A stretch of 64,000 bases of DNA from Pseudomonas phage vB_PaePAO1-KEN19 (PP456878.1); one strand, 5' to 3'; positions 17,588 to 62,135 are shown, numbered from the stretch's first letter. The notes: generated by a model not told the origin, from the sequence alone. A program made the numbers and translations.

Positions 17588-17634
17588 TTTTAAAGTCCCT
17601 TTTTACATTAATTGAAGGTTAAATATCAAGTTAG

Positions 17635-17662
17635 TAATATACTGTTTAAATATGTTTGAATA
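17635..17662 (-). promoter_or_regulatory. conserved promoter-like motif (TATTCAAACATATTTAAACAGTATATTA on - strand)
   Basis: one of >=7 near-identical copies, all upstream of - strand genes; shares ~60-bp identical leader with copy at 19466-19520. Confidence 0.4.
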
Positions 17663-17677
17663 AGGGAGTAGTAGTTA

Positions 17678-17938
17678 TTACATATCGTGCAGGTAGGTCT
17701 CATCAATGATGGCACGGGCTAGCTCAATGAGACTATCTTCATCAACAACAATGTTACCATCTTTCCAGGTAGCGCTATGGGATAACCAGTTACGGTAATC
17801 CTTACCTCGTACAGGATTGATGCATACCTGACGAGTAGCTGCATCACGGTCACCACGGAAACCCATGATAGCACGTGCACGACGGATTGCTTCTTTCTCC
17901 AAGTCTTCGTCAGATTTAAAAGTCAGGAAAGTTGTCAT
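17678..17938 (-). CDS. hypothetical protein (86 aa)
   Basis: ORF with AAGGAA SD; downstream of motif copy 17986-18018. Confidence 0.5.
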   Translation of the reverse strand: MTTFLTFKSDEDLEKEAIRRARAIMGFRGDRDAATRQVCINPVRGKDYRNWLSHSATWKDGNIVVDEDSLIELARAIIDETYLHDM

Positions 17939-17985
17939 AGTTTGATTCCTTTTTACTGATTTAATAGGTTTAATTACACTGTTGT

Positions 17986-18018
17986 GATATACTGGTTAAA
18001 ATGGTTTGAATGTATTAT
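17986..18018 (-). promoter_or_regulatory. conserved promoter-like motif copy
   Basis: ATAATACATTCAAACCATTTTAACCAGTATATC on - strand. Confidence 0.4.
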
Positions 18019-18019
18019 T

Positions 18020-18352
18020 TCATTTCCACAGACGACAATAGTCATCTACATGTCGAGTGATTTCTGCAACAGCCCTGAGTCGCCGCCGGCCAGTTAATTT
18101 AGAGCAGTGTTTATTAACTAATGTATCAACAGTTTTACGTAACCTAACACAGCGTTCTTCATTAGGTATATCTTGTTCGATAAACAGGCTAGTTAATTTA
18201 TGGATTTCCATATGGATTTTCTTACATACATCGTTAGCCGATTTTTCTTCATTTAATTTGTTGTATGATTCGACTAACTTAACAATAGTTGTAGCAACAG
18301 TAGTTGCGGCAACAAAAATTTGAATACCATTGATAAAATTTTTATTAAACAT
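18020..18352 (-). CDS. hypothetical protein (110 aa) with N-terminal TM segment
   Basis: IQIFVAATTVATTIV hydrophobic N-terminus. Confidence 0.5.
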   Translation of the reverse strand: MFNKNFINGIQIFVAATTVATTIVKLVESYNKLNEEKSANDVCKKIHMEIHKLTSLFIEQDIPNEERCVRLRKTVDTLVNKHCSKLTGRRRLRAVAEITRHVDDYCRLWK

Positions 18353-18403
18353 TTTTAAACTCCAACTAATGTATTAAAAAAATATGTCTATATTGAAAAT
18401 AAA

Positions 18404-18423
18404 GCCCTCCCCGAAGGGAGGGT
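18404..18423 (-). terminator. hairpin GCCCTCC-CCGA-AGGGAGGGT (family member)
   Basis: read in sequence. Confidence 0.5.
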
Positions 18424-18453
18424 GTATGTCGCCAATAAGTGTTACTAATTTAT

Positions 18454-18666
18454 TTAGTTAGTTTGACCATACGTTCTTTCAAAGTTGTTTACATCATAAC
18501 CTGAGTGGTGTGTTGCAGAACCACCTGAAGTAGTATCTATAATCTTAACTACCACTTCATCATTTTCAATGTAAACCGACAGTTTATCTCGCATAAAATC
18601 CACGTGGTCATTTCGAGAACGTAGATATTTCATTACAGCTTCGCCACTGATTTTACTATTAGCCAT
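18454..18666 (-). CDS. hypothetical protein (70 aa)
   Basis: ORF. Confidence 0.45.
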   Translation of the reverse strand: MANSKISGEAVMKYLRSRNDHVDFMRDKLSVYIENDEVVVKIIDTTSGGSATHHSGYDVNNFERTYGQTN

Positions 18667-18668
18667 TA

Positions 18669-18905
18669 TTATTTCCTCGATTGATTCCAGTTAAAATTAT
18701 CTTTTGCATTTTTAGTGAAGAACCCGTTACCCCAACCAAATGAGTATCTAAAGTCCTTGATTACACCAACATCCGAATCGATAACCTTATATTCAATGAC
18801 TTTATCACTATTCTCCAGAATGACTAAGATCGCGATAAGATCTTTAGGATCACCTACAGTCAATTCATGTCTTTCAGACTCGTCTCTGTGGATAACGATG
18901 TACAT
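18669..18905 (-). CDS. hypothetical protein (78 aa)
   Basis: ORF 3 nt upstream of previous. Confidence 0.45.
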   Translation of the reverse strand: MYIVIHRDESERHELTVGDPKDLIAILVILENSDKVIEYKVIDSDVGVIKDFRYSFGWGNGFFTKNAKDNFNWNQSRK

Positions 18906-59773: not shown

Positions 59774-59790
59774 TTTAAATCCTTCTTCAT

Positions 59791-60174
59791 TTATTTAATG
59801 GTAAGAATAGTAATTTTTTCAGGATTTACTGGAACTTTAATTTTAGATTTATGTTGGAGAAACTCAACAACCACCATAGACTTATCCATTTTATACACTT
59901 CACATACTTTGACAAGCCTATCTACTACGCAACCAATTTTACCGGCATTTTGAGAAAAGAAAGATTTTGCTTTTCTAATAGCCTCGCGTTTCTCAAGCAT
60001 TTCCATACGCATATTTTCAATATGTTTATCGCGTTGAACACGATTAAACTTACGCATATGTCGTTCGATCTTACTAATTTCAGAAGAGTGTAATGAATAA
60101 GCAGCAGCTTCTTTCAGTTTCTCATATACTTCCACTGCCATTACCACGTGATCATCTTCAAAATTTCTTTTCAT
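59791..60174 (-). CDS. hypothetical protein (127 aa)
   Basis: ORF. Confidence 0.5.
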   Translation of the reverse strand: MKRNFEDDHVVMAVEVYEKLKEAAAYSLHSSEISKIERHMRKFNRVQRDKHIENMRMEMLEKREAIRKAKSFFSQNAGKIGCVVDRLVKVCEVYKMDKSMVVVEFLQHKSKIKVPVNPEKITILTIK

Positions 60175-60187
60175 ATCTATGCCTTTT

Positions 60188-60982
60188 TCACTGTTTGATT
60201 AAATTTGACACTGCTTCTTGTTTACATTGAGTATTCATCCATAATGCAATGTCTTTGGGTTCTTGTCCAGTTTCCACCATATCGATAATGATACGGGTAT
60301 TACGTTGTGCTTTCTCACGGGCATTTAACATATCAGGATCATTAATAATGAATTCCCTACCCATAACTGGATCTAATCCAATATAAGCTTTAGATGCAAT
60401 AGTTCTCACCATTGCTTCATATTGGTCACATCCACGTTCAGTTAATACAAGGTTATCTGCATTGGCACTACCGCCAAATAGCAAACCTAGGAATCCATAG
60501 AAAAAAGTGTGACGTATTGTCTTCCAACAAATACGCATCTCTTCATTTTTTGTATAAAGCTTTTCCCAATCAAACATTAAATAGAAACTTTCTTTTTGGA
60601 TAGAAGGGTGTAACCAAATAGGTTTAATACTTACTTCAAGAAGTTTACTATTTGGATTTTTACCAATAAAGATAACTTCAACAATGGCTCGTGCTAAAGC
60701 ATCTTTTTCTTTACCATTCCATCCAAATTTTATTTCATCAGCCGTGATATAAAGACGTATTCCGTCACCCACGTATTTGGGTAACCAAACAGCTTTACCT
60801 AGTTGCATTGGAACACTATTAGGGATCCCCCCAACCATCCAGGTAGCATTGGTGAAATGAATAGCGACATCATCATTTAACCACTTTAGAATAGCTGGCC
60901 TTACCCAGCTATCTACCAAATTACCACATGTCAATGCAGCTAGCATAGCCATGAGTATAATGACAATATAAATACTAACCAT
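60188..60982 (-). CDS. membrane protein (264 aa) with N-terminal TM
   Basis: MVSIYIVIILMAMLAALTCG. Confidence 0.5.
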   Translation of the reverse strand: MVSIYIVIILMAMLAALTCGNLVDSWVRPAILKWLNDDVAIHFTNATWMVGGIPNSVPMQLGKAVWLPKYVGDGIRLYITADEIKFGWNGKEKDALARAIVEVIFIGKNPNSKLLEVSIKPIWLHPSIQKESFYLMFDWEKLYTKNEEMRICWKTIRHTFFYGFLGLLFGGSANADNLVLTERGCDQYEAMVRTIASKAYIGLDPVMGREFIINDPDMLNAREKAQRNTRIIIDMVETGQEPKDIALWMNTQCKQEAVSNLIKQ

Positions 60983-60985
60983 ATT

Positions 60986-61345
60986 CTACTCCAAGTTAAA
61001 TTTAGTACCAATTGCTTCAACACAGTTTTCAGCTAGCCTATCTAGAATAGCTCCATTGGTAAATCCTTTTCGTTTATTTACGCGAATATCAACTAAGTTT
61101 AATTTAGCATATACGGTACCTGCATAGAACTCTAAGTCATCCATATCCTTACGAGAGATCATATCTAACTGCATCATTATCTCAAATTGGGATAGGTTCT
61201 TATCATAAAGCTCAGTTGCTTTTTGTGAAAGATTTACTGCCACATTACATGATTTCTTAGTAATACCCACTTCTACAGCGTGGGCAGGCTGACATGCAAT
61301 GGACAGGATTGGCAGGAAAAGGAATAATAGCCAATTCTTAAGCAT
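60986..61345 (-). CDS. secreted small protein (119 aa), tandem family member
   Basis: signal peptide MLKNWLLFLFLPILSIACQPAHA; Cys pair (KKSC...ENCVEA). Confidence 0.5.
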   Translation of the reverse strand: MLKNWLLFLFLPILSIACQPAHAVEVGITKKSCNVAVNLSQKATELYDKNLSQFEIMMQLDMISRKDMDDLEFYAGTVYAKLNLVDIRVNKRKGFTNGAILDRLAENCVEAIGTKFNLE

Positions 61346-61357
61346 GTTGTACCTCCA

Positions 61358-61765
61358 TTATTTTAGAGTAAGTGGTTTTGCTTCAAACGCACCTGCCGCT
61401 ACACAACGCTGGAAATAACCATCAATGATGAATTTCTCAGGAGTGGTCTTATAGACTTTAGCAGCATTTGTTGCACGTGGCAAACTTGCCTCAATTGCCA
61501 TTTTATCTACCTTAGACCATAGGTAAAATAGACCAGTGAGTTCTTCAACTTTAGACTGGTTGGTCTTTAGATCTTTAGTGTTATTAAGGATATAATGAAT
61601 CCTTTCATAAGTCTTCATTTGCACTTCAGTTACAGATGCACCTTTTACAAACAATTCATCTGCCTGTTTTACAAACTCGATGCATGAATCACGATTAGTG
61701 TACATGACAGCCGAGTTAGCAGTGATAGTTACAATAGACAACATAAATACAATTACATATTTCAT
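61358..61765 (-). CDS. secreted small protein (135 aa), tandem family member
   Basis: signal peptide MKYVIVFMLSIVTITANSA; Cys pair (RDSC...QRCVAAG). Confidence 0.5.
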   Translation of the reverse strand: MKYVIVFMLSIVTITANSAVMYTNRDSCIEFVKQADELFVKGASVTEVQMKTYERIHYILNNTKDLKTNQSKVEELTGLFYLWSKVDKMAIEASLPRATNAAKVYKTTPEKFIIDGYFQRCVAAGAFEAKPLTLK

Positions 61766-61791
61766 AATGAATTACCTCAAAATTAATTTTA

Positions 61792-62055
61792 TTAACTATT
61801 GGTTTCACCACGAGTATTGAATTCTAAATCCAATACAACTTTAGTAAATTCTTCCAGTGCACCACCCTCGTAGATGAGTGGGTCACTGTCACCCCGGTAC
61901 ATGCTACCTACCGGTACTTGACCACGAAACACCATCAGCATATCGTTTTTTACTATGACATGATGTTCATCCCCGACAGCAATGTCTTGGATGTGTCTCC
62001 AGCGTTCACGCAGTAAGCTGCAAGCGCACCATACGGATTTCAAACGTTCAGTCAT
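61792..62055 (-). CDS. hypothetical protein (87 aa)
   Basis: ORF downstream of motif copy. Confidence 0.45.
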   Translation of the reverse strand: MTERLKSVWCACSLLRERWRHIQDIAVGDEHHVIVKNDMLMVFRGQVPVGSMYRGDSDPLIYEGGALEEFTKVVLDLEFNTRGETNS

Positions 62056-62088
62056 TGTATTGCCCTCTTGGTTATTAAATTCATATTT

Positions 62089-62118
62089 GTAATATAGCTT
62101 TTTAAATAGTTTAAATAC
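62089..62118 (-). promoter_or_regulatory. conserved promoter-like motif copy (divergent variant)
   Basis: GTAATATAGCTTTTTAAATAGTTTAAATAC. Confidence 0.35.
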
Positions 62119-62135
62119 AAAAAAAGATAAATAAA

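Follow-up and report, generated by a model that had tools for sequence, protein, structure and literature searches.

A repeated minus-strand motif in a segment of Pseudomonas phage vB_PaePAO1-KEN19 matches the published early promoters of phiKZ-type jumbo phages

A stretch of 64 000 nucleotides from Pseudomonas phage vB_PaePAO1-KEN19 (PP456878.1; hereafter the window, numbered from its first letter) carries seven strong copies of an AT-rich motif, which we regard with high confidence as phiKZ-type jumbo-phage early promoters, of the class attributed to the virion-packaged RNA polymerase (virion RNAP). A preliminary description, made from the sequence, had reported at least seven copies of the motif, all on the minus strand and upstream of minus-strand genes, and had proposed a phage-specific promoter class. 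All seven copies were recovered, at coordinates right to within 1–2 nt, and the proposed class turned out to be the phiKZ early promoter, for which a consensus and mapped transcription start sites (TSSs) have been published. The motif, its TSSs and the assignment to the virion RNAP have been known and in print since 2014, and the motif already serves as an engineering part under the name 'consensus early promoter'; it is not a discovery. It is a genuine non-sigma70 promoter class that can be recognised from raw sequence.

RESULTS

Seven strong copies of the motif in a Phikzvirus genome segment

By sequence match, the window corresponds to a segment of a Phikzvirus genome, reverse-complemented with respect to phiKZ numbering. 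A megablast search with positions 17000–21000 matched 53 Pseudomonas phage records, all of phiKZ type, with identities of 100% for PA_ZH1 and vB_PaeM_HUST_1 and 99.8% for phiKZ. The phiKZ genome was assembled from seven pieces; local BLAST against it placed window 1–22156 on phiKZ 20227–1 (reverse strand) and window 22157–64000, colinearly, on phiKZ 280334–238457, and the window runs across the point at which that record arbitrarily begins and ends. Since the window is colinear with phiKZ in reverse, its minus strand is the plus (leading) strand of phiKZ. The window derives from a different strain, nearest to vB_PaeM_HUST_1 and PA_ZH1.

The window was searched with the 17-mer core TTTAAACAGTATATTAC, allowing up to three mismatches, and 100 shuffles served as control. 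Seven matches were found, all on the minus strand, where 0.76 were expected, and none of the 100 shuffles reached seven. Four of them are exact (17634–17650, 19485–19501, 19989–20005 and 55739–55755) and two have two mismatches (17984–18000 and 34828–34844). The copy at 62089 was missed by the core search because it has more than three core mismatches; it is unambiguous once the flanks are counted, with 39–40 bits against a 38-nt matrix. A 38-column matrix was built from the seven copies and compared with twenty Markov-chain shuffles of the window. The copies score 39–53 bits, whereas the shuffle maxima were 11.7 bits with this first matrix and 14.3 bits with a refined one. The strong copies total seven, all of them intergenic and each just upstream of a co-oriented gene. 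They are listed below as very probable early promoters (positions −37 to +1; UTR, untranslated region; ORF, open reading frame).

17627–17664, minus strand: P_gp10.1; +1 is the G at 17627; 5′ UTR of 40 nt; PHIKZ010.1 homologue (ORF 17438–17587, 49 aa)
17977–18014, minus strand: P_gp10; core TATATCAC; +1 at 17977; 5′ UTR of 39 nt; PHIKZ010 homologue (ORF 17678–17938)
19478–19515, minus strand: P_gp6; +1 at 19478 (phiKZ 2679); 5′ UTR of 40 nt; PHIKZ006 homologue (ORF 18923–19438)
19982–20019, minus strand: gp5 promoter; +1 at 19982; PHIKZ005 homologue (ATG at 19937, end of stop codon at 19533)
34821–34858, minus strand: core TATATCAT; +1 at 34821; PHIKZ293.2 homologue (ORF 34634–34771, 45 aa)
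55732–55769, minus strand: P_gp260; +1 at 55732; 5′ UTR of 37 nt; PHIKZ260 homologue, dCMP-deaminase-like (ORF 55336–55695)
62082–62119, minus strand: +1 at 62082; 5′ UTR of 27 nt; PHIKZ246.1 homologue (ORF 61792–62055); terminator-like hairpin upstream at 62136–62155

One further core match, at 29741–29757 with three mismatches, failed the extended matrix scan and was dropped as a probable chance occurrence.

Agreement with the published consensus and with mapped start sites

The 'Consensus early promoter' of phiKZ is printed as tatattaaaaaaaatttaagatgtatattacaaatgtg, 38 nt in length (supplement of PMC12676376, a 2025 preprint). The window copies agree with it at 27–30 of 38 positions, in register, without gaps and with the same terminal G. 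Six of the seven 38-mers agree with phiKZ sites at every base; P_gp10.1, for example, is identical to phiKZ 4493–4530 and has the consensus base at 27 of 38 positions.

Mapped TSSs were taken from Table S3 of Putzeys et al. (bioRxiv 10.1101/2023.10.13.562163), which was obtained by ONT-cappable-seq and gives 50-nt upstream sequences. For five of the seven copies the predicted +1 lies 0–1 nt from an orthologous phiKZ TSS labelled 'early promoter', and the upstream sequences of these five entries are the window motifs:

P001: mapped phiKZ TSS 2176; predicted +1 2175; window +1 19982
P002: mapped phiKZ TSS 4180; predicted +1 4180; window +1 17977
P122: mapped phiKZ TSS 240373; predicted +1 240372; window +1 62082
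P125: mapped phiKZ TSS 246721; predicted +1 246721; window +1 55732
P135: mapped phiKZ TSS 266897; predicted +1 266896; window +1 34821

The table credits validation of P002 to Ceyssens 2014 and Wicke 2021. P125 goes with transcription unit TU185, PHIKZ260-262 (10.1101/2023.10.13.562163), and a primary TSS of PHIKZ260 was also found by differential RNA sequencing (PMC8244752). For phiKZ, a distance of 6 nt from the consensus element to the TSS downstream has been described (PMC5312081).

The same table also labels P121 (phiKZ TSS 238722, window ~63732, minus strand), upstream of PHIKZ244, as 'early promoter'. The sequence upstream of this TSS is without TATATTAC and has at its end TATG, which is the signature of late promoters, and P121 lies outside the motif family considered here.

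Anatomy of the element and comparison with sigma70 promoters

For numbering, the G of the terminal TG was taken as +1. The 38-nt register is then tripartite: ATTyAAA at −34 to −28, TTTAAA at −23 to −18 and TATATTAC at −14 to −7, followed by 6 nt and by T at −1 and G at +1. Every copy has TATAT(T/C)A(C/T) in the last block, TT.AA within the middle one and ATT.AAA in the first, and 19 of the 38 columns show no variation between copies (ATT.AAA, TT.AA, TATAT.A..A and the terminal TG). The three blocks are set ~10–10.5 bp apart, and would therefore face the same side of the DNA helix. The upstream sequence GTATTCAAAC, which had been described as usual, is exact in one copy; five copies carry ATTCAAAC and two carry GTATTTAAA.

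From the predicted +1 to the start of the first ORF (at least 30 aa) there are 27–50 nt, and each start lies behind an AGG/GAGG-type Shine–Dalgarno site. Counted from the C of TATATTAC, the start codon is 33–56 nt away, which agrees with the 30–80 nt and good Shine–Dalgarno sites of the preliminary description. GC-rich hairpins stand directly upstream of several copies, and those at 55786–55806, intrinsic-terminator-like and next to the 55732 promoter, and at 62136–62155 have T-rich tails on the minus strand. Another GC-rich hairpin (20028–20049), after the dihydrofolate reductase gene, precedes the 19982 copy; this one was placed on the plus strand by the scan. In the window as a whole, terminator-like sites exceeded the shuffles (6 versus 1.0, and 21 versus 8.5).

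Could these be host sigma70 promoters of unusual spacing, read by unmodified P. aeruginosa RNAP at the start of infection? The element is AT-rich, TTTAAA (−23 to −18), 17 nt and GAWWWW (GATATT, GTAATT or GAATTA at +1 to +6) can be drawn in every copy, and Wicke et al. describe an 'extended −10 box' in the motif (PMC8244752). However, with this alignment transcription would be expected to start ~12 nt downstream of the mapped TSSs, and the most conserved bases (TATATTAC, T at −1 and G at +1) are not those that sigma70 needs. The spacing noted originally, TTCAAA–13 nt–TATATT, is correct and departs from a sigma70 promoter, in which TTGACA-like and TATAAT-like hexamers are 16–18 nt apart and the TSS lies ~7 nt after the −10 element. 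In accordance with its reading as non-sigma70, a sigma70 consensus scan showed no enrichment (11 matches versus 12.8 expected, and 96 versus 94.4), and its matches did not regularly overlap the copies. Moreover, phiKZ infection is reported to be unaffected by rifampicin, an inhibitor of the host RNAP (PMC13282480), which largely refutes this explanation; we consider it very improbable.

Genome-wide distribution in phiKZ

The assembled phiKZ genome was scanned with the matrix refined on the first matches. At a cut-off of at least 15 bits (shuffle maximum 14.3) it contains 27 sites, all 27 on the plus strand, each with an ORF start 6–73 nt downstream. Orientation relative to genes is therefore not random; such randomness had been named beforehand as an outcome that would speak against promoters, and the whole-genome scan did not find it. 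Fifteen of the 27 sites lie within 0–1 nt of 'early promoter' TSSs in Table S3. The number fits the 28–32 early promoters published for phiKZ, for which a 'unidirectional distribution of early genes' has also been described (PMC8244752; PMC10914365). Sites precede gp54 (nuclear shell) with gp55, and others precede gp68 and gp121-123; among these are the non-virion RNAP subunit genes, which are early according to the literature (PMC7598289, PMC13282480). No general downstream or leader element was found across all 27 early units, the likeness of leaders being limited to the duplicated cassettes described below.

Which polymerase reads the promoters

Published work has demonstrated the early timing of this class as well as its independence from the host RNAP, through the rifampicin result, and from protein synthesis (PMC7598289). 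Because early transcription proceeds without protein synthesis, it has been assigned to the virion-packaged multisubunit RNAP encoded by orf178/149/180/80 (PMC7598289; PMC12676376; also PMC8244752, PMC10914365, PMC13282480), and a factor made only after infection cannot be required. None of these four genes lies within the window. The enzyme consists of at least five β/β′ fragments, with no homologues of sigma, alpha or omega (PMC7598289, PMC13282480, PMC12676376).

On this basis, the virion-packaged β/β′-like RNAP would be injected together with the DNA at infection and would initiate at these sites with no need of host RNAP or of newly made protein. Transcripts would start at a G that is preceded by T at −1 and separated from TATATTAC by exactly 6 nt. 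The resulting mRNAs would have short leaders (27–50 nt) with Shine–Dalgarno sites. In the window they would encode small early proteins and enzymes of nucleotide metabolism, and elsewhere the non-virion RNAP subunits and the nuclear-shell protein; the intrinsic-terminator-like hairpin immediately upstream would insulate several of the units. We infer that sequence-specific contact with the three blocks, and melting of the DNA around TATATTAC, are the work of the virion RNAP itself, whether unaided or helped by co-injected proteins.

A different reader had been suggested in the preliminary description, namely a phage-modified host RNAP, or host core RNAP combined with a sigma-like protein encoded by ORF 15912–16514. 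The C-terminal part of this protein does give a weak helix-turn-helix-like signal (DUF3853, E = 8.9e-4; Sigma70_r4, E = 0.18). Both matches are below the Pfam cut-offs, however (19.8 versus 22.1 bits and 11.8 versus 24.1 bits, respectively), region 2 is lacking, and the ORF, on the minus strand, encodes a 65%-identical homologue of PHIKZ013 (phrog_24977, function unknown). Jumbo-phage genomes are without a recognisable sigma homologue (PMC7598289), and a newly made factor acting on the host RNAP fits neither the rifampicin result nor the independence from protein synthesis. Neither part of the suggestion is supported, and there is very little chance that this reading is correct.

The same ORF differs in length from its annotated counterpart, with 200 aa in the window versus 135 aa in phiKZ, and the sub-threshold DUF3853 match comes from the additional C-terminal ~65 aa. 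The phiKZ gp13 annotation may be truncated or frameshifted, since similar residues are encoded at phiKZ 6046–6135.

Injection of an RNAP also brings to mind coliphage N4, whose virion RNAP recognises a hairpin extruded from the template strand. Early genes are transcribed in both systems by an injected virion RNAP, in N4 likewise independently of the host. The seven 46-nt segments and three reverse strands were therefore folded as single-stranded DNA; energies ranged from −0.3 to −4.2 kcal/mol (z from −1.3 to +1.1), no different from those of shuffles, and there was no shared hairpin. In addition, phiKZ packages a multisubunit β/β′ virion RNAP, not one of the single-subunit N4 type (PMC7598289). 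Promoters of the N4 kind can be given next to no probability here.

Some observations weigh against early promoters of the virion-RNAP class. P_gp6 and P_gp10.1 (phiKZ 2679 and 4530), two of the seven copies, are not in Table S3; that ONT-cappable-seq table recovered 16 of 32 known early promoters (PMC10914365). The allele at 34821 (TATATCAT) does not have the C at −7, which is constant in the other copies; the same core is found in a validated phiKZ early promoter, P025. The mapped TSSs come from phiKZ and not from this exact strain. Finally, no in vitro reconstitution of promoter recognition by the phiKZ virion RNAP, and no structure, was found in the literature consulted. A 2020 review stated that no virion RNAP had been purified as of then (PMC7598289), and a review of 2026 continues to leave room for helper proteins that are co-injected (PMC13282480). 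The sites and invariant bases given here are obvious templates for work on how a sigma-less, split β/β′ virion polymerase, by itself or aided by such proteins, recognises a tripartite element.

Conservation and likeness to known systems

In pPA-N1803-4At.2, an 89%-identical Phikzvirus, the gp5, gp6 and gp10 promoters are kept, with 3–5 substitutions per 38-mer, all at columns that also vary among the phiKZ copies. At two positions where the gp10 copy of the window deviates (TTTAAC, TATATCAC), this phage has the consensus base. Because the substitutions are so few, such conservation is weak evidence by itself. A tblastn search with gp260 for intermediate relatives did not provide a set for footprinting: the matches fell into Phikzvirus sequences with identities of at least 95% and sequences from unrelated phages with less than 60%.

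With respect to phiKZ, the window has the same sequences, strand bias, gene context and UTR lengths (typically 31–40 nt), except that the PHIKZ293.2 promoter is another allele, with core TATATCAT. This allele has 8 of 38 positions changed relative to phiKZ, is common to at least 13 genomes and resembles the gp6-type cassette from −22 to +5. The PHIKZ293.2 homologue is the sole minus-strand unit within a plus-strand block of tRNAs and genes, and its promoter stands back-to-back with tRNA-Thr (34919–34995, plus strand), for which a middle promoter (phiKZ TSS 266808) is present in Table S3 of Putzeys et al. (10.1101/2023.10.13.562163).

More distant relatives preserve the same layout. The early promoters of 201phi2-1 (Serwervirus) are said to 'mirror' those of phiKZ at −10, −20 and −30 (PMC11512511), and TTTAAA..(G/C)TATATTAC....GTG occurs in 201phi2-1, in the Pawinskivirus PS119XW, where one gene is preceded by two copies in tandem, and in jumbo-size IMG/VR contigs. 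In 201phi2-1 and in jumbo-size IMG/VR contigs the extended form is ATTAGAAG..TTTAAAG.GTATATTAC....GTG; the −30 block of this group (ATTAGAAG) differs from that of phiKZ, which has ATTCAAAC or an A-run. When IMG/VR was scanned with TTTAANNNNTATATTACNNNNNTG, most of the matches listed were single matches on unrelated contigs; among the matches listed, a −30 block that the query did not force was present at ~20 loci, mainly on jumbo-size contigs including 201phi2-1.

The early promoters of Bacillus phage AR9 are AAATATATATTAT-(6N)-G+1 (PMC5312081). They share with the phiKZ element an AT-rich conserved stretch of ~10 nt centred near −10, with a nearly identical TATATTA(C/T) core, 6 nt and then the initiating G, and the polymerase assigned to them is likewise a virion-packaged split β/β′ RNAP. 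In contrast, the AR9 genome contains uracil, its upstream blocks differ, the C of phiKZ at −7 is replaced by T in AR9, and the conserved −20 and −30 blocks are additional in phiKZ. Coliphage N4 resembles phiKZ in the injected polymerase described above and differs in its single-subunit RNAP and hairpin promoter, the window copies being without a hairpin.

Sub-families and a duplicated promoter-leader cassette

The 27 phiKZ sites split cleanly into 13 of A-type (ATTyAAAC...TTTAAACAGTATATTAC) and 14 of B-type (an A/T-run followed by TTTRAGATnTATATTAC); the latter include the sites before gp54, gp68 and gp121-123. Positions are tightly correlated; a G at −15, for instance, is accompanied by a C at −17 (Fisher P = 1.3e-6). 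The seven strong window copies are all of A-type and the three weaker ones are B-type-like.

Two of the A-type copies share their leader. The first 30 transcribed nucleotides of P_gp10.1 are identical to the P_gp6 leader, and the perfect identity extends over a promoter-plus-leader block:

17598–17650 and 19449–19501, minus strand: duplicated cassette, 53 nt (−23 to +30), ending at the Shine–Dalgarno region GTAAAAAGG

A near-identical leader of ~75 bp had been described here (17590–17665 and 19441–19520). The shared block is real; its extent is ~66 bp (62 of 66 positions from −34 to +31), of which the 53 nt are perfect. In pPA-N1803-4At.2 the gp10.1 orthologue is present and the gp10/gp10.1 spacer is without the promoter cassette, so cassettes would seem to be gained or lost between strains (one case).

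These features recall the PeSL elements of T4-type phages, which Arbiol, Comeau and Krisch (2010) reportedly described as mobile cassettes made of an early promoter and a stem-loop. The likeness lies in repeated modules of terminator hairpin and early promoter flanking small ORFan genes, in the duplicated block and in presence or absence between strains. PeSL promoters are sigma70 promoters, however, and for phiKZ there is a single presence/absence case, a role of recombination being suggested by analogy. It is possible, and we propose it tentatively, that the early promoters are not a single uniform class, that the sub-families differ in strength or timing, and that promoter-plus-5′UTR cassettes are portable modules, which are duplicated from locus to locus and come and go among strains.

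Taken further, the copies might be mainly relics of PeSL-like recombination and duplication, with their likeness due to common descent instead of selection for promoter function. The 53-nt identical block at two loci, the presence or absence of the gp10.1 cassette, the 34821 allele, which looks converted towards the P_gp6 type, and the two sub-families with correlated positions would all fit such an origin. It does not account for mapped TSSs at a fixed distance from the motif, for invariant positions kept across genera while the flanks diverge, or for the co-orientation of every copy with its downstream gene. Mobility of the cassette is compatible with promoter function and probably secondary to it; we give the relic explanation only a slim chance.

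Weaker candidates and other features of the window

Three weaker copies on the same strand were found with the refined matrix:

58417–58454, minus strand: weaker B-type candidate early promoter, TTTTTTTTGAAATCTATATTAC, +1 = A, 23.6 bits; PHIKZ254 homologue (58010–58384)
44322–44359, minus strand: weak B-type candidate, TTTAAGATCTATATTAC, +1 = A, 15.5 bits; PHIKZ283.1 homologue; phiKZ 257584
51793–51830, minus strand: marginal candidate, core TATATAAC, 15.4 bits; PHIKZ267.1 homologue (51606–51758)

The first corresponds to phiKZ 244036, has a UTR of 33 nt and a terminator-like hairpin upstream (58459–58478), and is without a TSS in the ONT-cappable-seq list. The second is barely above the refined-matrix shuffle maximum of 14.3 bits and is likewise not in that list. 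The third scores 11.4 bits with the first matrix, near the shuffle maxima with either matrix.

Adjacent to the gp10 promoter (17977–18014) lies one edge of a mosaic patch, the gp8-spacer-gp9 block at 18020–18666, which is 68–80% identical to pPA-N1803-4At.2 whereas neighbouring genes are 93–96% identical. ORF 18020–18352 in this patch has 110 aa; the annotated PHIKZ009 is shorter (63 aa). A larger region, 8000–18000, has a GC content of 0.43–0.46 in most 2-kb bins, versus 0.31–0.39 in the remaining window. It is mosaic with respect to phiKZ (megablast gaps at 8632–9386, 10707–11762 and 15929–16168) and finds a 99.9% match in other Phikzvirus genomes.

An Rfam search of the window returned seven tRNAs only. 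The second tRNA-Asn(GTT) is intact (32800–32875, plus strand), while in its phiKZ counterpart the anticodon loop is split by a 772-bp insertion (phiKZ 268882–269653). This insertion, in which Rfam gave no group I intron match at E ≤ 0.1, contains a tRNA-like gene of 84 nt as well as the gene for gp296, an HNH endonuclease.

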